Shown here: in pieces, positions 1-6,871 of the stretch
Numbering within the stretch: position 1 is the stretch's first letter
Layout of the letters: each line of letters starts with the position of its first letter
Virus record (IMG/VR): IMGVR_UViG_2690316346_000011
Length of the DNA: 6,871 nucleotides
Reading direction: 5' to 3' (one strand)
From: a virus
Taxonomy: Duplodnaviria; Heunggongvirae; Uroviricota; Caudoviricetes
The notes under the pieces: generated by a model
The model's input: only the letters and a program-made list of their open reading frames with translations
The model's database searches: none
What the model was told of the DNA's origin: nothing
Made by a program: the position numbers and the translations under genes

Positions 1-35
1 CAGCACGTTTAACGTCCTGTGCCGTTTTTCAGGTA

Positions 36-60
36 TAAAAAAACCCGCATAAAGCGGGCT
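36..60 (-). terminator. Rho-independent terminator downstream of the Q-like gene (candidate tR'-type)
   Basis: Minus strand: GC stem CCCGC (44-48) / GCGGG (54-58) with a 5-nt loop, immediately followed by a run of 7 T (complement of A37-A43). Lies about 80 nt downstream of the Q-like stop (138-140). Confidence 0.55.
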
Positions 61-119
61 CTTTCAAATGTCCATGTCTGCTATTCGCCTCGCGGTACAG
101 CTTTGCGAAGCGTACAAGA

Positions 120-148
120 ATTGAAGCAGTTTTTACGTCAAAAAGCAA
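120..148 (-). promoter_or_regulatory. Candidate late promoter (pR'-like) overlapping the 3' end of the Q-like gene
   Basis: Minus strand extended -10 TGcTTCAAT (plus 128-120) with a weak -35 TTGCTT (plus 148-143) at 17-bp spacing; predicted start near 113, giving a roughly 75-nt RNA ending at the 36-60 terminator. Motif match only. Confidence 0.2.
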
Positions 149-692
149 TAACTTTTTTCTCTATACCAAAAGCCATAACCATTGGTTTGTACAAAATAAA
201 TTCTGCCACCTTTAGCCAATGCTCAATGCGTCTTTCACAGGTTCTTAAACTCCATTTCGGGTGTGCATCATTCAGCAGTTCAGCCATTTTGCGTTTGGTC
301 ATCCCCCGCCCCTCATACCGTTGCCGAAGGACGCTAATCAATCCTGGATGCTCTGCCAGCACCTCACTTATGACCCGATCAATACATAACGCCTCTGCAT
401 CAGTACAATGCGCCAGCCAGCTCTTTTGCTTACCGTTAATCATATCCCGCAAAAAAGCCTCAAGTTCAGACTTGTTCAGACCTGCTTTTTTCATCCTCCG
501 GAGCGCCTCGTTAATTGCCGTTTTTGTCAGCTTTTTAGAGGTCAACATCAGGTTAAACATATTCCCCGTCTTACCGCCACCAATATACGACCAGCGCCCC
601 CACATACGTAGTTTTCCCTGAATCCAGACACTTTCCAGCGTGGTGAGACGAAGGTGTTCTCCGCTTTTTCCTGTATTCGTTGGGTAAATCAT
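138..692 (-). CDS. Phage antitermination protein Q-like (184 aa)
   Basis: Minus-strand ORF (track 138..812). Preferred start is ATG at 692-690, preceded by AGGAGG 7 nt upstream and overlapping the upstream stop as ATGA. It is the last gene before the terminator and follows a YbcO-like gene, as in lambdoid nin-Q regions. A W-G-x-W segment (LRMWGRWSY) recalls 21/933W-type Q proteins; this is recollection, not a search result. Confidence 0.5.
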   Translation of the reverse strand: MIYPTNTGKSGEHLRLTTLESVWIQGKLRMWGRWSYIGGGKTGNMFNLMLTSKKLTKTAINEALRRMKKAGLNKSELEAFLRDMINGKQKSWLAHCTDAEALCIDRVISEVLAEHPGLISVLRQRYEGRGMTKRKMAELLNDAHPKWSLRTCERRIEHWLKVAEFILYKPMVMAFGIEKKVIAF

Positions 693-979
693 AAATATCC
701 CTCCTTTCTCCAGATTTCTTGTGTGCGAAAAACACCTTCTGCATGCATCAGGCGTAATTCTTCTTTGGTGTAATCGCTGGTTTTTACCCGCCCGTCGATT
801 AAATCGTGGCACGAGCTACAGGCAATCGCTGCCTGCATATCGTGTGGCTTTATCGCTGTTCCGCACGTTCCCGCCAGTCGGTAATGCGCCAGCACAGACG
901 TTTCCGGATCGTGATTGCAGTAGCCAGGAATTCTGACGGTGCACATCTGCCCCCGCGCCGCTTTACGTAAATCCACCAT
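689..979 (-). CDS. DUF1364 / YbcO-like phage protein (96 aa, Cys/His-rich putative nuclease)
   Basis: ORF 689..979 translates MVDLRKAARG...CTVRIPGYCNHDPETSVLAHYRLAGTCGTAIKPHD...CSSCHD; the length and Cys/His pattern match the YbcO family of lambdoid prophages as I recall it. Start ATG overlaps the upstream stop (TAATG); stop TGA overlaps the Q-like ATG. Confidence 0.7.
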   Translation of the reverse strand: MVDLRKAARGQMCTVRIPGYCNHDPETSVLAHYRLAGTCGTAIKPHDMQAAIACSSCHDLIDGRVKTSDYTKEELRLMHAEGVFRTQEIWRKEGYL

Positions 980-1578
980 TACGCAAACTCCAGCAGCTGC
1001 GCGGCCACATTTTCGACTTGTTCCGGAGAGGAAAATTTACGGAACAGAATCCAGTTCCACAGCACATTCAGAACAGATTTATAAACCTGCTGAAACTCGG
1101 TTTCGTCCATATTCGCAAAAGCGATGGATTTTGCCCGACGCCCGCGGCTACCGTCCGGATAAAAATGTTCGGTGTAAAATCCAGCCTGAATGGTTACCCA
1201 CTCGCGAAAAGCCTCAAACGACTTTAGCAATGCCGTATCCCGGGTTCTGCGTGTCGCAACTGTATTCAGATATTGCTCTGCGGCTTCGCTCAGAGCTGGC
1301 GTATGTTCCCGACCTACTGATTCGCACAGGTAATCAACGAAACCAGACAGCAGTTCTCGTTCGCGAGGCGTGATCGCCCCACCGACCGGAGTCCAGTAAT
1401 CGAATCCCAGTTGCAGGAGTTTGAAAAAACGCTTGTGGAATGCGTAGTTACGCACACGCTTAAAGTCTGCGTGTATCCACTCACCTATTTTGATTTGATG
1501 CAGAAAATCGCAACTCTCCGGCGTCGCCGGGAGAAGTAATCCGGAAGAGGTTTGTTTGATCAGTTGTATATGCGCCAT
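979..1578 (-). CDS. Prophage protein of unknown function (199 aa, DUF1367-like by recollection)
   Basis: ORF 979..1578 starting MAHIQLIKQTSSGLLLPATPESCDFLHQIKIGEW; GGAGAA motif upstream of the ATG at 1578; stop overlaps the next start. Its 5' third is repeated at 4766-5072. The family name is from memory. Confidence 0.6.
   Translation of the reverse strand: MAHIQLIKQTSSGLLLPATPESCDFLHQIKIGEWIHADFKRVRNYAFHKRFFKLLQLGFDYWTPVGGAITPRERELLSGFVDYLCESVGREHTPALSEAAEQYLNTVATRRTRDTALLKSFEAFREWVTIQAGFYTEHFYPDGSRGRRAKSIAFANMDETEFQQVYKSVLNVLWNWILFRKFSSPEQVENVAAQLLEFA
1272..1578. repeat. Dispersed direct repeat (about 307 bp, about 97% identical) with 4766-5072
   Basis: Two copies of the DUF1367-like 5' region; flanks diverge beyond about 20 nt upstream of the ATG. 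Confidence 0.85.
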
Positions 1579-1649
1579 CGTAGTTCTCCGCTGGCGCAGT
1601 AGAATGGGTGTTCAGCCCGTTATGTAGTATACCAGAATTAATGCCAATA

Positions 1650-1862
1650 CTAACAGGATGCTCTGACTCGCAATTCATCCAGCAGTTTATCATTTCCCAT
1701 AATGTCACTTACCCTCATCGGTAAAAAAATTGCCTTTCGACCATTACGATACATCATTGATTTTTTGGTTTCAGGGAAGTAATCCATTTCGACTATAACT
1801 GACAGGTCATCACGACGTATGACTGCGTATTTACTACTAAATAGTTTCTTTATTTTTTCCAC
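1650..1862 (-). CDS. Small hypothetical phage protein (70 aa, GTG start)
   Basis: ORF 1650..1862 with GTG start (plus 1860-1862 = cac) preceded by GGAGG. It is a positional and sequence paralog of the 95-aa ORF at 5111-5398 (shared M-KI..L..FS...YAV.R.....IV and RK.GA..F segments). Confidence 0.45.
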   Translation of the reverse strand: MEKIKKLFSSKYAVIRRDDLSVIVEMDYFPETKKSMMYRNGRKAIFLPMRVSDIMGNDKLLDELRVRASC

Positions 1863-1913
1863 GATGCCTCCAGGTTTATAAGTACAAACGGTTATATCAA
1901 CATAGAGACAAAA

Positions 1914-1936
1914 GGTGATGCTGCCAACTTACTGAT
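1914..1936. repeat. IS1 left terminal inverted repeat
   Basis: 23-bp GGTGATGCTGCCAACTTACTGAT, inverted match to 2659-2681. Confidence 0.9.
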
Positions 1937-1968
1937 TTAGTGTATGATCGTGTTTTTGAGGTGCTCCA

Positions 1969-2244
1969 GTGGCTTCTGTTTCTATCAGCTGTCCCTCCTG
2001 TTCAGCTACTGACGGGGTGGTGCGTAACGGCAAAAGCACTGCCGGACATCAGCGCTATCTCTGCTCTCACTGCCGTAAAACATGGCAACTGCAGTTCACT
2101 TACACCGCTTCTCAACCCGGTACGCACCAGAAAATCATTGATATGGCCATGAATGGCGTTGGATGCCGGGCAACTGCACGCATTATGGGCGTTGGCCTCA
2201 ACACGATTTTACGTCACTTAAAAAACTCAGGCCGCAGTCGGTAA
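1969..2244 (+). CDS. insA: IS1 InsA (91 aa)
   Basis: ORF translation [46 protein letters not shown]... matches IS1 InsA as I recall it. Confidence 0.95.
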
Positions 2245-2666
2245 CCTCGCGCATACAGCCGGGCAGTGACGTCATCGTCTGCGCGGAAATGGACGAACAG
2301 TGGGGCTATGTCGGGGCTAAATCGCGCCAGCGCTGGCTGTTTTACGCGTATGACAGTCTCCGGAAGACGGTTGTTGCGCACGTATTCGGTGAACGCACTA
2401 TGGCGACGCTGGGGCGTCTTATGAGCCTGCTGTCACCCTTTGACGTGGTGATATGGATGACGGATGGCTGGCCGCTGTATGAATCCCGCCTGAAGGGAAA
2501 GCTGCACGTAATCAGCAAGCGATATACGCAGCGAATTGAGCGGCATAACCTGAATCTGAGGCAGCACCTGGCACGGCTGGGACGGAAGTCGCTGTCGTTC
2601 TCAAAATCGGTGGAGCTGCATGACAAAGTCATCGGGCATTATCTGAACATAAAACACTATCAATAA
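2163..2666 (+). CDS. insB: IS1 InsB reading frame (transposase made as InsAB' by -1 frameshift)
   Basis: ORF in the -1 frame relative to insA, translation ...[28 protein letters not shown]...; the 5' limit shown is the first in-frame start of the ORF track, while the functional product is the frameshift fusion. Confidence 0.9.
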
Positions 2667-2681
2667 GTTGGAGTCATTACC
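2659..2681. repeat. IS1 right terminal inverted repeat
   Basis: ATCAATAAGTTGGAGTCATTACC, inverted match to 1914-1936. Confidence 0.9.
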
Positions 2682-2759
2682 CAGAATGTCTATTGAAGTT
2701 CTGTTGCAAAAAAACAGTGAATTGCAGATTGTCCTGAAAACGGATGATTACCGCATAAC
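2682..2759. other. 78-bp orphan segment between the IS1 right end and the IS2 end
   Basis: Belongs to neither IS1 (ends 2681) nor IS2 (starts 2760) and does not continue the IS600-like orfB reading frame. No flanking target duplications. Confidence 0.6.
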
Positions 2760-2801
2760 TGGATTTGCCCCTATATTTCCAGACATCTGTTATCACTTAA
2801 C
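2760..2801. repeat. IS2 terminal inverted repeat (right end of the element, window-left)
   Basis: Imperfect inverted match to 4050-4090. Confidence 0.8.
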
Positions 2802-3676
2802 CCATTACAAGCCCGCTGCCGCAGATATTCCCGTGGCGAGCGATAACCCAGCGCACTATGCGGATGCCATTCGTTATAATGCTCGAACGCCTCTGCAAGG
2901 TTCTTTGCTGCCGTTAACCCGTCTGGTTTGGGCATGATACTGATGTAGTCACGCTTTATCGTTTTCACGAAGCTCTCTGCTATTCCGTTACTCTCCGGAC
3001 TCCGCACCGCCGTGTTCTTCGGTTCAAGTCCCAACATCCGGGCGAACTGGCGTGTTTCATTAGCCCGGTAGCATGAACCATTATCCGTCAGCCACTCCAC
3101 TGGAGACGACGGAAGATCGTTGCCGAAGCGGCGTTCCACCGCTCCCAGCATGACGTCCTGTACTGTTTCACTGTTGAAGCCGCCGGTAGTCACCGCCCAG
3201 TGCAGTGCCTCACGATCACAGCAGTCCAGCGCGAACGTGACACGCAGTCTCTCTCCGTTATCACAGCAGAACTCGAACCCGTCAGAGCACCATCGCTGAT
3301 TGCTTTCTTTCACGGCCACTCTGCCTGTATGTGCCCGTTTCGATGGCGGTACAGCAGGTTTTCGCTCAAGCAACAGCGCATTCTGGCGCATGATCCGGTA
3401 AACACGTTTGGCATTGATCGCAGGCATACCATCAAGTTCTGCCTGTCTGCGAAGCAGCGCCCATACCCGACGATAACCATACGTGGGCAGCTCTCCGATA
3501 ACATGGTGTATACGGAGAAGCACATCCGTATCATCAGTGTGACGACTGCGGCGGCCATCCATCCAGTCATCGGTTCGTCTGAGAATGACGTGCAACTGCG
3601 CACGCGACACCCGGAGACAACGGCTGACTAAGCTTACTCCCCATCCCCGGGCAATAAGGGCGCGTGCGCTATCCAC
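2771..3676 (-). CDS. insD: IS2 InsD (OrfB transposase, 301 aa, GTG start)
   Basis: ORF 2771..3676, translation ...[38 protein letters not shown]...[12 protein letters not shown] typical of IS2 / IS3-family OrfB; overlaps insC in the -1 frame. Confidence 0.9.
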
Positions 3677-3999
3677 TTTTTTGCCCGTCCATATTCAACG
3701 GCTTCTTTGAGGAGTTCATTTTCCATCGTTTTCTTGCCGAGCAGGCGCTGGAGTTCTTTAATCTGCTTCATGGCGGCAGCAAGTTCAGAGGCAGGAACAA
3801 CCTGTTCTCCGGCGGCGACAGCAGTAAGACTTCCTTCCTGGTATTGCTTACGCCAGAGAAATAACTGGCTGGCTGCTACACCATGTTGCCGGGCAACGAG
3901 GGAGACCGTCATCCCCGGTTCAAAGCTCTGCTGAACAATTGCGATCTTTTCCTGTGTGGTACGCCGTCTGCGTTTCTCCGGCCCTAAGACATCAATCAT
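3634..3999 (-). CDS. insC: IS2 InsC (OrfA, 121 aa)
   Basis: Translation from ATG at 3999: [56 protein letters not shown]...; the ORF-track 5' extension to 4044 is rejected. Confidence 0.9.
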
Positions 4000-4049
4000 C
4001 TGTACTCCAATGACTAGTCTAAAAACTAGTATTAAGACTATCACTTATT

Positions 4050-4090
4050 TAAGTGATACTGGTTGTCTGGAGATTCAGGGGGCCAGTCTA
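4050..4090. repeat. IS2 terminal inverted repeat (left end of the element, window-right)
   Basis: TAAGTGATACTGGTTGTCTGGAGATTCAGGGGGCCAGTCTA, imperfect inverted match to 2760-2801. Confidence 0.8.
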
Positions 4091-4092
4091 GT

Positions 4093-4722
4093 GACCGACT
4101 GGCACGTCTTCGTAAGGAGCTAAGGCTACGCTGTAAGCAGAAACGCAAGTTCAGAGCGACTACGAACTCGAACCACAATCTGCCAGTTGCGCCAAATCTG
4201 CTGAACCAGACGTTCGCTCCTACAGCACCAAATCAGGTCTGGGTGGCGGACCTGACGTATGTTGCCACACAGGAGGGATGGTTGTACCTCGCTGGCATCA
4301 AAGATGTTTATACGTGCGAAATTGTCGGCTACGCCATGGGAGAGCGCATGACAAAAGAGCTGACAGGTAAAGCCCTGTTTATGGCGCTCAGGAGCCAGCG
4401 CCCACCTGCCGGGCTAATCCACCACTCTGATCGAGGTTCACAGTACTGCGCATACGATTACCGGGTCATACAGGAGCAGTCTGGTCTGAAAACATCAATG
4501 TCGCGTAAAGGTAACTGTTACGACAACGCTCCGATGGAAAGCTTCTGGGGAACGCTGAAAAATGAGAGCCTGAGCCACTATCGTTTTAATAACCGGGATG
4601 AAGCCATCTCAGTAATACGGGAATACATTGAGATTTTCTACAATCGTCAGCGTCGTCACTCTCGTCTGGGGAATATCTCCCCGGCAGCCTTCAGGGAAAA
4701 ATATCATCAGATGGCTGCTTAA
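4093..4722 (+). pseudogene. IS3-family transposase OrfB, N-terminally truncated
   Basis: Frame translation DRLARLRKELRLRCKQKRKF...VWVADLTYVATQEGWLYLAG...HSDRGSQYCAYDY...CYDNAPMESFWGTLKNE... has the DDE-region signatures of IS3-family OrfB. The ORF-track start at 4063 lies inside IS2 and is artefactual. Confidence 0.85.
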
Positions 4723-4765
4723 AAAAAGAACAAATGGTAGTGTCCGCTATTGCCAGTACACCTCA
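4715..4765. repeat. 51-bp terminal segment of the IS600-like element, repeated inverted at 6821-6871
   Basis: 4715-4765 is the exact reverse complement of 6821-6871 by direct comparison. Confidence 0.9.
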
Positions 4766-5072
4766 ATTGCTCTGCGGCTTCGCTCAGAGCTGGCGTATGT
4801 TCCCGGCCTACTGATTCACACAGGTAATCAACGAAACCGGACACCAGTTTTCGTTCGCGAGGCGTGATCGCCCCACCGACCGGAGTCCAGTAATCGAATC
4901 CCAGTTGCAGGAGTTTGAAAAAACGCTTGTGGAATGCGTAGTTACACACACGCTTAAAGTCTGCGTGTATCCACTCACCTATTTTGATTTGATGCAGAAA
5001 ATCGCAACTCTCCGGCGTCGCCGGGAGAAGTAATCCGGAAGAGGTTTGTTTGACCAGTTGTATATGTGCCAT
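4766..5072 (-). pseudogene. 5' fragment (about 102 codons) of a second DUF1367-like gene, truncated by the IS600-like end
   Basis: From ATG at 5072 (MAHIQLVKQTSS...) the sequence is co-linear with 1272-1578 with about 8 mismatches in about 307 nt by eye, then runs into IS sequence at 4765. The ORF-track N-terminal extension to 5114 is rejected. Confidence 0.8.
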
Positions 5073-5110
5073 CGGCTTTCTCCGGTGGCACGGTGTTACA
5101 CAGCAGGAGT

Positions 5111-5398
5111 TCAATCCTGCTCAAGATTGTAGATGAGTTTATTCTTCAGCAAAAGCAGAAAACCAGCCTTAAAACCAATCTCTTTCAAAACCCGTAATGA
5201 TGTGACAAATTCGTCCTCACGCAAAATAAAACCGTCCGTCAGAAGTCCATTACAAAAATAAAATAACACAGCACCGCTCTTCCTTTGTTGAGATTGCAAA
5301 CATCTAATGCGGCAATGGCTGACAATCGCTCCATTCTCAACGCGCACAGCATAGAGGCCATTTTCACTAAAAATTTCACGCAATTCTTCGATTTTCAT
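5111..5398 (-). CDS. Small hypothetical phage protein (95 aa), paralog of the 70-aa ORF at 1650-1862
   Basis: ORF 5111..5398 with ATG start and GGAAGGA upstream; holds the same position, directly upstream of the DUF1367-like gene, as the 70-aa ORF and shares its N-terminal pattern. Confidence 0.45.
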   Translation of the reverse strand: MKIEELREIFSENGLYAVRVENGAIVSHCRIRCLQSQQRKSGAVLFYFCNGLLTDGFILREDEFVTSLRVLKEIGFKAGFLLLLKNKLIYNLEQD

Positions 5399-5516
5399 CT
5401 TCAGAATCCTTCCAGATAAATAGCTCTCCCCTGTTCGGGGTCCATCCCTCTTCTCCCTGCGCGCTACTTAAGTGAGTCGATTCTATCTGCGAAGGTGCGC
5501 GAATCAAATTCACCGG

Positions 5517-5572
5517 AAATAAACAACAAAAAACCCGCCGAAACGCTGAGAGATCACAGCGATGGGCGGGTT
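5517..5572 (-). terminator. Rho-independent terminator downstream of hok
   Basis: Minus strand: outer stem AACCCGCC (5572-5565) / GGCGGGTT (5539-5532) with an inner CGCTG/CAGCG stem (5544-5548 / 5557-5561), followed by TTTTGTTGTTTATTT (complement of 5531-5517). Confidence 0.5.
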
Positions 5573-5611
5573 AAGTGCGGGTGCGTTGAGGATGCCTGAC
5601 ACATCAGAGGT

Positions 5612-5639
5612 GGGCGGGGATGGGATCAGCTCCCCGCCC
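5612..5639 (-). promoter_or_regulatory. GC-rich hairpin 9 nt past the hok stop (candidate fbi-type 3' element)
   Basis: GGGCGGGGA (5612-5620) / TCCCCGCCC (5631-5639) perfect 9-bp inverted repeat with a 10-nt loop and no following U-run; hok mRNAs are known to carry structured 3' ends. Confidence 0.35.
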
Positions 5640-5647
5640 GGTCACTC

Positions 5648-5803
5648 TTACTTCCTGGATTCGTAGTCTACGAAGACAGCGACCTCCGTCTGGCCGGTTC
5701 GGATTCGTACCTCACAGAGGTCTTTCCTCGTTACCAGTGCCGTCACTATGACGGTTAAACAGATGACGATCAGGGCGATTAACATCGCCTTTTGCTGCTT
5801 CAT
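5648..5803 (-). CDS. hok: Hok/Gef-family type I toxin (51 aa)
   Basis: Translation MKQQKAMLIALIVICLTVIVTALVTRKDLCEVRIRTGQTEVAVFVDYESRK: a single hydrophobic helix then the conserved RKDLCEVRIRTGQTEVA motif, close to HokD/Gef as recalled. ATG at 5803 has AAGGAG 9 nt upstream; the ORF-track in-frame extension to 5860 is rejected as the start. Confidence 0.9.
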   Translation of the reverse strand: MKQQKAMLIALIVICLTVIVTALVTRKDLCEVRIRTGQTEVAVFVDYESRK

Positions 5804-5979
5804 AGCCTGCTTCTCCTTGCCTTTCGGCATGTAAGAGGCTAACCTACATGTGCAAAGCATGAAATTGGCCTCAGATTAATGTTAAGCGTCTTGCCGGACG
5901 CGTAATGTTAACTGGGGCTTTTCTCTATCTGCCTTTTGGTGTTCATGCCTGAAGCAGATAGCCTCAAGCACCCGCAGTC

Positions 5980-6009
5980 ATTCTACTTACCTCGCCAATA
6001 TGAAATCAA
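5980..6009 (-). promoter_or_regulatory. Candidate sigma70 promoter for the hok transcript
   Basis: Minus strand -35 TTGATT (plus 6009-6004), 18-bp spacer, -10 TAGAAT (plus 5985-5980); predicted start near 5973, giving a leader of about 170 nt, in the range known for hok mRNAs. Motif match only. Confidence 0.3.
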
Positions 6010-6030
6010 TCAGAAAGGTGCCCCATAAAA

Positions 6031-6717
6031 TCACTCCTTCTCTTCTTTACCGTAGTGGAGTTGACCAATTTTGATAAGAGGGCGTCCCTGAGATTTGCGG
6101 TGTAGATTGGTATCGCGCAGAGAATACACACAGCCACAATATTCCTGCTGATAGAATTTTTCGCGCTTGCTGATTTCAATCATACGGGACGAGCCGCCCT
6201 GCTTGCGCCAGTTATAATCCCAGTACACCATGCCCGGATAATGCGCGACGGCTCGCCGCCCACAGTCGTTAACCTGCTGCATATTTTTCCAGCGTGAAAT
6301 GCCCAGTGAACTGCTGATCACACTGAAACCATTTTCAGCGGCGTACAGCGCTGTCCGCTCAAAACGCATGTCAAAACACATGGTGCAACGGATCCCTCGT
6401 TCGGGCTCCCATTCCATTCCTTTGGCTCGTTCAAACCAGTTGTCTGTGTCGTAATCAGCATCAATAAACGGCACGCCGTGTTGTTCAGCAAAGCGAATAT
6501 TCTCATCCTTACGAATTAAATACTCTTTCTGAGGATGAATGTTCGGGTTGTAGAAAAAGATGGTGTAGTCGATTCCCGAGGCCTGAAGCGCCTCCATCAC
6601 CTCACCGGAACATGGAGCACAGCAAGAGTGCAGTAGTAGTTTGTTTGCCCCGTTTGGGAGCTCCAATTTGGGCCGTTTGAAATCAGCAACTGTCATAAAT
6701 ATGTTTATTGGGGTCAT
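6031..6717 (-). CDS. queH: QueH-like protein (DUF208 epoxyqueuosine reductase family, 228 aa)
   Basis: Translation carries the family signatures as I recall them: [11 protein letters not shown] near the N-terminus, [19 protein letters not shown] and YCGCVYS (Cys ligand pattern of the QueH Fe-S site). Neither candidate ATG (6717, 6696) has a good Shine-Dalgarno, so the start is uncertain. Confidence 0.75.
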
Positions 6718-6820
6718 AAAAATATCAAAGAGTGTAGCATTAGAACGGGGCTATCGGAAACAGATGTGTGACTGCTCCCCGCCCTTTCGGGTGGTCTCCT
6801 GATGATTTGAGGGTGCAGAA

Positions 6821-6871
6821 TGAGGTGTACTGGCAATAGCGGACACTACCATTTGTTCTTTTTTTAAGCAG
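6821..6871 (-). mobile_element. Terminus of a second IS600-like (IS3-family) copy, inverted; the element continues beyond the window
   Basis: TGAGGTGTACTGGCAATAGCGGACACTACC... begins with the TG terminus and is the exact reverse complement of 4715-4765, including the orfB stop region. Confidence 0.8.

Follow-up and report, generated by a model that had tools for sequence, protein, structure and literature searches.

Genes and insertion sequences at the locus

The window (the whole 6,871-nt stretch of DNA analysed) is the reverse complement of the complete draft contig CXEQ01000243.1 (GCA_001258815.1). It contains a 2,055-bp block (4766-6820) bracketed by IS600 ends, preceded on the left by a second DUF1367 gene, IS1, a short chromosomal fragment and IS2:

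979-1578, minus strand: second DUF1367 gene, full-length, from a different prophage (PF07105 positions 1-198)
1914-2681, plus strand: IS1 (99.6-99.9% identity to annotated IS1)
2682-2757, plus strand: internal fragment (76 bp) of the chromosomal gene fimZ, between IS1 and IS2 (BLAST hits under annotated fimZ)
2758-4090, minus strand: IS2, abutting IS600 nt 590 (99.85-100% identity to annotated IS2)
4091-4765, plus strand: 3' fragment of IS600, nt 590-1264, with the C-terminal part of orfB and the IRR terminus, lacking IRL and orfA (3' 675 bp of full 1,264-bp IS600 copies)
4243-4722, plus strand: orfB remnant, a called gene of 159 aa (rve, rve_2 and rve_3 domains)
4715-4765, plus strand: left arm, IRR end of the truncated IS600 (repeat search)
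4766-5072, minus strand: DUF1367 gene (irsA-like), 5' 102 codons, cut by IS600 (PF07105 positions 1-102 of 198)
5111-5398, minus strand: rem, 95 aa, one of the small genes in nin regions of the Rac/Qin type (PF27490 Rem on an identical product; 'rem' in Rac phage records)
5648-5803, minus strand: predicted hokD-type Hok toxin gene, 51 aa (PF01848, E = 1e-22; RefSeq hokD at the matching position of locus L001)
5798-5973, minus strand: match to the Rfam family 'sok' (RF01794) over the regulatory leader region of the hok locus
6031-6696, minus strand: QueH, predicted epoxyqueuosine reductase, 221 aa according to RefSeq (PF02677; RefSeq annotation in loci L001 and L002)
6821-6871, minus strand: right arm, first 51 nt of the IRR end of a second, inverted IS600, cut by the contig end (repeat search)

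The gene content assigned to the block by the initial annotation (a DUF1367 fragment, a 95-aa ORF, hok and a QueH-like gene) was borne out by Pfam and RefSeq annotation. The truncated DUF1367 gene forms a chimeric ORF that runs into the IRR and stops at 4719; at locus L001, an intact DUF1367 continues across the truncation point. The hok frame has an in-frame upstream extension to 5860, and the sok match scores 117 bits against a gathering score of 59 (E = 5.9e-27). Together, the Hok/Gef ORF and the conserved sok/leader region define a predicted hok/sok type I toxin-antitoxin locus. Likewise, the open frame of queH extends to 6717 and its product matches PF02677 (QueH, DUF208) with 220.6 bits (cut-off 23.5) over profile positions 1-174 of 175, a full-length match that assigns it to the predicted QueH class of epoxyqueuosine reductases.

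The repeat search also recovered the previously noted pair of reverse-complementary 51-nt arms, which are 100% complementary and spaced 2,055 nt apart; by our own arithmetic, a perfect inverted pair of 51 nt would be expected by chance ~5e-24 times in 6.9 kb. Alignment to IS600 copies further confirmed that the arms are IS600 termini and that both copies point their orfB-proximal (IRR) ends towards the block. The IRR of full IS600 copies (...ACACCTCA) is the sequence of both arms, the IRL of such copies begins TGAGGTAGCC, and both arms have the 5'-TG...CA-3' terminal inverted repeats that mark IS600 membership. The contig stops 51 nt into the right-hand IS600. The arm length is a data artefact, because the short-read contig breaks inside the IS600 repeat, and the perfect repeat is the same IRR terminus seen twice.

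The left IS600 stretch is 99.3-100% identical to full 1,264-bp copies, in which window position 4091 corresponds to nt 590, and to elements that carry the annotation 'IS3-like element IS600 family transposase'; at locus L002 the matching stretch is annotated as IS600. The product of 4063-4722 carries the DDE transposase domain rve (PF00665, E = 6e-26) along with rve_2 and rve_3, and the orfB remnant ends at 4722, 43 nt short of the terminus at 4765. A complete element of ~1,264 bp with orfA, orfB and both ends is not present on this side; with IS2 directly adjoining nt 590, the left copy is limited to nt 590-1264 and has neither IRL nor orfA. The two 5-bp flanks of IS2 differ (ATAAC and GTGAC, read from the sequence) and therefore do not fit a simple insertion. 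The flanks of IS1 differ as well, and IS1 is therefore without a 9-bp target duplication.

The block within a Rac-like prophage

In E. coli FDAARGOS_944/943, a Rac-like prophage runs uninterrupted through the sequence of the block, with 99.9% identity, in collinear order and with no IS600 at either edge. Collinearity at 99.85-99.95% identity was likewise found with the uninterrupted prophages at loci L001, L002, L039 and L040, where the prophage continues on both sides. Among phage records, the best matches reach 86-93% identity and include phage Rac, whose record is annotated with irsA/DUF1367, rem, mok and hok, and other phage matches span hok to QueH. The genes of the block, their order and their orientation are the same as in the Rac/Qin-type lambdoid nin region (DUF1367/irsA, rem, hok/sok), but IS600 truncates the region on both sides in the window, where it has lost its replication and Q/lysis neighbours.

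We propose, with a probability of about 0.8, that independent IS600 events in a decaying prophage account for the bracketed block. It would represent a nin-region remnant of a Rac-like lambdoid prophage with the order QueH, hok/sok, rem and DUF1367, residing in a Shigella sonnei-type host genome and bounded by two unrelated IS600 events. At the left edge, an IS600 seems to have cut DUF1367 after codon 102, forming a junction that is widespread and probably old, while the right edge would be set by a second IS600 of opposite orientation in the AT-rich spacer upstream of QueH. The block itself would be immobile and persist passively, possibly with help from hok/sok as an addiction module, while the surrounding prophage is worn down by IS insertion, recombination between IS copies and adjacent deletions. 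For Shigella, inversions and decay associated with IS elements have been documented as the norm (PMC7819885). We infer that the organism is S. sonnei.

IS600 junctions on either side of the block

The contig joins, via multicopy IS elements, three regions that finished genomes place far apart, so the truncation of the left copy could be an assembly artefact. The succession of prophage A, IS1, 76 bp of fimZ, IS2, IS600 fragment and block might be a chimera produced by scaffolding or gap filling over collapsed IS repeats, a possibility to which we give somewhat less than even odds. The real left copy would then be a full IS600 followed by an integrase fragment and modC, as in other S. sonnei. 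Each unique-to-IS junction of the contig recurs in finished genomes, while the flank pairs across each IS do not. Window positions 1-2681 are collinear with loci where a different hok locus lies on the other side of IS1, and in GCA_965230885.1 that hok locus is ~1.1 Mb away from the block. The 2,010-bp composite of IS2 and the IS600 fragment is found in finished genomes in the msyB-to-grxB chromosomal neighbourhood. Moreover, all nine sister draft contigs fetched with the same DUF1367 allele break inside IS1, and neither IS1 nor IS2 has a target duplication. On the other hand, homologous recombination between IS copies would produce exactly the same pattern, and heavy rearrangement is typical of Shigella genomes. 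In E. coli 720632, what looked like an IS1-spacer-IS2 match proved to be an unrelated adjacency in ycgH. SNPs were uninformative about the parent of the IS600 fragment because the two candidates, the DUF1367-adjacent and the IS2-linked copies, are identical over 675 bp. A chimeric join would change the state of the left copy only and is compatible with independent IS600 events in a decaying prophage.

The junction between DUF1367 and the left IS600 is shared with many genomes. Across the assembly collection, 521 blocks index the DUF1367::IS600 fusion protein. Of the nine contexts shown, eight have no right-hand IS600 and continue past QueH into a 118-aa gene, DUF977 and ydaV; S. sonnei 75/02 (CP019689) is one of these eight. 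Between the window and genomes with the same left junction we counted a single SNP over 2,730 bp. A lineage-specific protein allele was considered for finding sister contigs and discarded, since the only private SNP of the block (4899) is synonymous.

These genomes also bear on the suggestion, made in the initial annotation, that an IS-mediated inversion separated the halves of DUF1367. Recombination between the inverted IS600 copies would have flipped the 2-kb block and split the gene, leaving its 3' half beyond the right copy. Inversion can occur between inverted IS copies, and IS-bounded inversions as small as ~700 bp have been reported in Shigella (PMC7819885). It is also consistent with such a flip that the outer neighbour of the left copy is IS2 and not the DUF1367 3' half, and that the flank beyond 6871 lies outside the contig. 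Nevertheless, we regard a flip of the 2-kb block as improbable, given that the junction of the DUF1367 5' part with the IRR is common (0-1 SNP) to genomes without the right-hand IS600. In those genomes the DUF1367 3' half is already absent at the IRL side, where the IRL abuts an integrase fragment, and the flanks of the IS600 copy in DUF1367 (ATT versus GTT) form no matching target duplication; a simple IS600 insertion at L003 4664-5927 has the 3-bp duplication GGT/GGT. The same junction of int fragment and IRL occurs in L036, a strain with an intact DUF1367 and the standard prophage order; this suggests that the gene was split by a larger inversion, between int and DUF1367. The part of the suggestion that concerns the 2-kb block was not supported, but an earlier and larger IS600-mediated inversion, with endpoints in int and DUF1367, is indicated by finished S. 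sonnei genomes.

The full-length DUF1367 gene at 979-1578, which forms a direct repeat of 300-324 nt with 4766-5089 in the repeat search, was considered as the missing half. Its 24 mismatches to L001 are spread over 966-1591, hence across the whole gene, and no IS600 adjoins it; it is therefore a different allele and not the missing half.

At the right edge, the junction of position 6820 with IS600 ('GAGGGTGCAGAATGAGGTGTACTGGCAATA') was found only in this contig among everything searched. It was not found in the 5,426 complete E. coli genomes. The exact junction had no match in GTDB representative genomes and JGI metagenomes either, a result that is uninformative because the left junction, common in the assembly collection, is absent there too. 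These searches suggest only weakly that the right junction is rare, as the DNA-scanned collections contain almost no Shigella. The right copy probably inserted afresh, either alone or together with an adjacent deletion. A simple insertion would place its IRL beside ...CCGGAGGGATTTC in the form '...TTAACCGGAGGGATTTC|TGAGGTAGCCTGAG', with a TTC duplication, and the sequence marker for the DUF1367 3' half beside the IRL is ...CAGATATT; ...GTATTCAGATATT. In the finished genome CP022459.1, an independent IS600 lies inverted at 32 bp from the site in the window, accompanied by a 2-kb adjacent deletion, and two full-length inverted IS600 copies enclose essentially the same cargo. As the right junctions are 32 bp apart in the two genomes that have one, they indicate separate events and not a moving unit.

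The initial annotation had further raised a composite-transposon-like unit, in which the two inverted IS600 copies would mobilise the hok/sok-QueH cargo together. The cargo does include an addiction module between two inverted IS600 ends, and the full-length pair in CP022459.1 is of the same form, but we consider such a unit very unlikely: with IS2 joined at 4090/4091 the left outer end is missing, which leaves a composite transposon unsupported; the IS bodies lie beyond the cargo and the IRR tips adjoin it, so the visible ends cannot define a segment that contains it; and the edges of the cargo are points inside a continuous prophage, with which the block is collinear. The search for the block elsewhere returned no IS600-flanked copy in 5,426 E. 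coli genomes, 72,556 plasmids and 50,697 phage records, and in the Shigella loci fetched the block always sits in the same prophage context. Equally hard to credit is that both copies are complete, the left truncation being an assembly artefact, and that an IS600-QueH-hok/sok-rem-IS600 unit moves or inverts as a composite element. If this were true, the independent, near-identical structure in CP022459.1 would hint at selection for the unit, and a small mobile hok/sok and queH unit would be of modest interest for the spread of toxin-antitoxin systems and for queuosine biology. A literature search on prophage QueH and on IS600 composite transposons yielded nothing relevant.

Relation to known IS600 and prophage systems

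In Shigella and EIEC genomes, IS600 (IS3 family) copies have an IRR terminus identical to the arms, and the orfB remnant has the rve DDE domains. However, full copies measure 1,264 bp, while in the window the left copy is reduced to nt 590-1264 fused to IS2 and only 51 nt of the right copy are visible. Tn10/Tn5-type composite transposons likewise have cargo between two inverted IS copies, but the window differs from them in its missing outer end, the absence of a second locus, the prophage-collinear cargo and the lack of a demonstrable target duplication, as neither outer flank is contained in the contig. Composite movement is less likely for IS3-family elements, which transpose by a copy-out/paste-in mechanism via an IRL-IRR circle junction. 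At stx, tandem amplification and deletion have been described between direct IS600 copies; such rearrangements would not apply to the inverted ones.

Another parallel is the IS600-containing Stx prophage region of S. dysenteriae 1 (PMC7819885), likewise an IS-eroded, rearranged lambdoid prophage with IS-bounded inversions. Compared with non-inducible Shigella prophage remnants, the fragment in the window is only 2 kb long and has no virulence cargo. The arrangement is a textbook case of the shredding of Shigella prophages by IS600, IS1 and IS2, and matters little beyond housekeeping. Draft contigs rich in IS elements may link parts of a genome that do not adjoin, and a perfect inverted repeat reaching the window edge in a genome scan can be a repeat-induced contig break.

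The inverted repeat and its IS600 arms

The inverted repeat described in the initial annotation was correctly observed, and the structure that it belongs to is ordinary and known in kind. Each component, whether IS600, IS1, IS2, a Rac-type nin region, hok/sok, or QueH, is known and receives routine annotation; in Shigella, prophage remnants bounded by IS elements and inversions associated with them are documented as the usual state (PMC7819885). In a repeat search, 4715-4765 and 6821-6871 formed the single outstanding inverted pair, with 51-nt arms at 100% complementarity, 2,055 nt apart, as had been claimed; the repeat is real, and the chance expectation for such a perfect pair in 6.9 kb is about 5e-24 (our own arithmetic). 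The left arm is the IRR (orfB-proximal terminus, ...ACACCTCA) of an IS600 fragment, because 4091-4765 match the 3' 675 bp of an annotated ‘IS3-like element IS600 family transposase’ and of full 1,264-bp copies at 99.3-100% identity and the reading frame that stops at 4722 encodes the rve, rve_2, and rve_3 integrase-core domains. The right arm is the reverse complement of the same terminus. Of the two IS600-like copies proposed to point their orfB-proximal ends inward, both thus present an IRR to the enclosed 2,055-bp block (4766-6820), but the left one consists only of nt 590-1264, window position 4091 being IS600 nt 590.

Features of the window (coordinates, strand, identity)
138-692, minus, DUF1133, Q-like
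689-979, minus, YbcO
979-1578, minus, full-length DUF1367
1650-1862, minus, 70-aa ORF
1914-2681, plus, IS1
2682-2757, plus, 76-bp internal piece of fimZ
2758-4090, minus, IS2
4091-4765, plus, IS600 nt 590-1264
4766-5072, minus, DUF1367 codons 1-102
5111-5398, minus, rem
5648-5803, minus, hok
5798-5973, minus, Rfam sok match (117 bits)
6031-6696, minus, QueH
6821-6871, minus, IS600 IRR

Contig ends and internal joins

Looking up the full-length DUF1367 protein led to the 6,871-bp NCBI draft contig CXEQ01000243.1 (GCA_001258815.1), which, reverse-complemented, is identical to the window, so that the window is an entire short-read contig. Both window ends are repeat boundaries: on the right the contig stops 51 nt inside a multicopy IS600, and on the left a cluster of prophage tRNA genes is ~50 nt away. 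Short-read assemblies usually break inside multicopy IS, and the arm length at the window edge therefore reflects a contig break and is uninformative for biology. We infer S. sonnei as the source organism, since S. sonnei 75/02 (CP019689; PMC5447701) is among the genomes with matching loci and the same paper assigns Sanger drafts with the CX prefix to the S. sonnei set of Holt et al. 2012.

Positions 1-2681 (prophage A and the whole IS1) are 99.9% identical to and collinear with finished genomes, where a different hok locus lies beyond IS1; in GCA_965230885.1 their counterpart and the block are ~1.1 Mb apart. The IS2::IS600(nt 590-1264) composite (2756-4765, 2,010 bp) is 99.95% identical to a copy in the msyB-to-grxB neighbourhood of finished genomes (fetched loci L025, L029, and L030, at about 8514-10523) and is therefore itself a dispersed repeat. 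Since these two stretches and the block map apart and each join runs through a multicopy IS, the window combines three regions that other genomes keep apart. Either several IS-IS recombinations brought them together in the strain itself, or the contig is a chimera made by scaffolding and gap filling across multicopy IS, a serious possibility that falls somewhat short of even odds; the nine fetched sister draft contigs carrying the same DUF1367 allele all stop within IS1. In a chimeric contig the true left copy would probably be a complete IS600 like that of other S. sonnei, and the conclusion on the block is the same either way. No matching target duplications flank IS1 or IS2 in the window, so each marks a rearrangement joint. 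The fimZ fragment stranded between them could be the mark of an IS-mediated deletion at the fimZ locus, which in E. coli K-12 adjoins argU and the DLP12 attachment site, or of a scaffold joint. The 70-aa ORF upstream of the full-length DUF1367 is without a Pfam match, and several finished genomes (L033-L038) conserve it together with this IS1 junction.

The block and the split DUF1367 gene

E. coli FDAARGOS_944 and FDAARGOS_943 match exactly 4766-6820, at 99.9% and 99.8% identity, within a continuous Rac-like prophage whose gene order is ydaV, DUF977, 118-aa gene, QueH, hokD, 95-aa gene, full DUF1367, DUF1364/YbcO, DUF1133, tRNAs, and lysis genes. IS600 is absent from both edges there and in two further loci (L039 and L040), and the block edges are therefore only two points within continuous phage sequence. 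Part of the gene set (irsA/DUF1367, rem, mok, and hok) is annotated in the phage Rac record, and other phage records match the hok-to-QueH stretch.

The DUF1367::IS600 fusion, encoding a chimeric 117-aa product, has 521 indexed blocks in the assembly collection; 24 contigs from these were inspected, with nine different contexts displayed. Against all of these, 4091-6820 differs by one synonymous SNP, and in 8/9 the 118-aa gene follows QueH without an IS600. DUF1367 is thus already split in genomes lacking the right-hand copy, which makes the suggested inversion of the 2-kb block superfluous and improbable as the event that separated the gene halves. What survives of that suggestion is a probable older and larger inversion. 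In genomes with the fusion, the outer (IRL) end of IS600 adjoins a phage-integrase fragment beside modC, and the 3-bp flanks of this copy do not match (ATT vs GTT), while a simple insertion nearby has GGT/GGT. The int-fragment/IRL junction is identical between L003 (DUF1367 cut; 10308-12028) and L036 (214-1934), yet L036 has an intact DUF1367 and standard prophage gene order, whereas early and nin genes of L003-type genomes run the opposite way relative to int. The most economical reading of this gene order and shared junction would be an IS600-IS600 inversion in S. sonnei with endpoints in int and DUF1367, which would have split DUF1367 without involving the window's right-hand IS600. In two Sanger draft contigs (L005 and L009, 10308-12400) the fusion leads instead to a second prophage's replication region, reflecting either further IS-mediated rearrangement or scaffolding across IS600.

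The full DUF1367 at 979-1578 was rejected as the missing half: up to 965 the sequence agrees fully with the FDAARGOS prophage, and 24 mismatches then spread over the whole gene, which makes it a different allele from another prophage. The 5' parts of the two alleles form a 324-nt direct repeat (1272-1595/4766-5089; identity about 96%, and 98% in the first 300 nt), and its exact start at the IS600 junction simply reflects the truncation of the second copy at that point. Within 4091-6820, CXEQ01000243.1 has a single private SNP, at 4899, which has the base of paralogous position 1405 and could stem from a small gene conversion or from consensus bleed-through between paralogues in assembly.

A composite-transposon-like unit, in which two inverted IS600 copies mobilise the block, is very improbable, as the outer IRL ends of both would be needed and the left copy has none (IS2 begins at the expected nt 589), the IRR tips touch the cargo with the IS bodies pointing away so that no segment set by these ends includes it, the block is collinear with prophages, and neither a second locus nor an IS600-flanked copy was found in the plasmid and phage records searched.

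The right junction upstream of QueH

The right IRR adjoins TTCTGCACCC within the AT-rich spacer upstream of QueH. This junction was not found in 5,426 E. coli genomes, nor in GTDB representative genomes or JGI metagenomes; only the E. coli result carries weight, because the left junction, common as it is, is missing from the other two sets as well. In the finished genome CP022459.1 (L011, 6900-8252), the same spacer contains a full IS600, inverted like the right-hand copy and 32 bp away from that copy's position in the window; next to it there is a 2-kb deletion and, ahead of it, a solo IRL fragment of 54 bp. IS600 has therefore reached the spacer at least twice independently, which is more in keeping with frequent IS600 activity than with a moving unit, and IS600 may have a local target preference for this AT-rich spacer.
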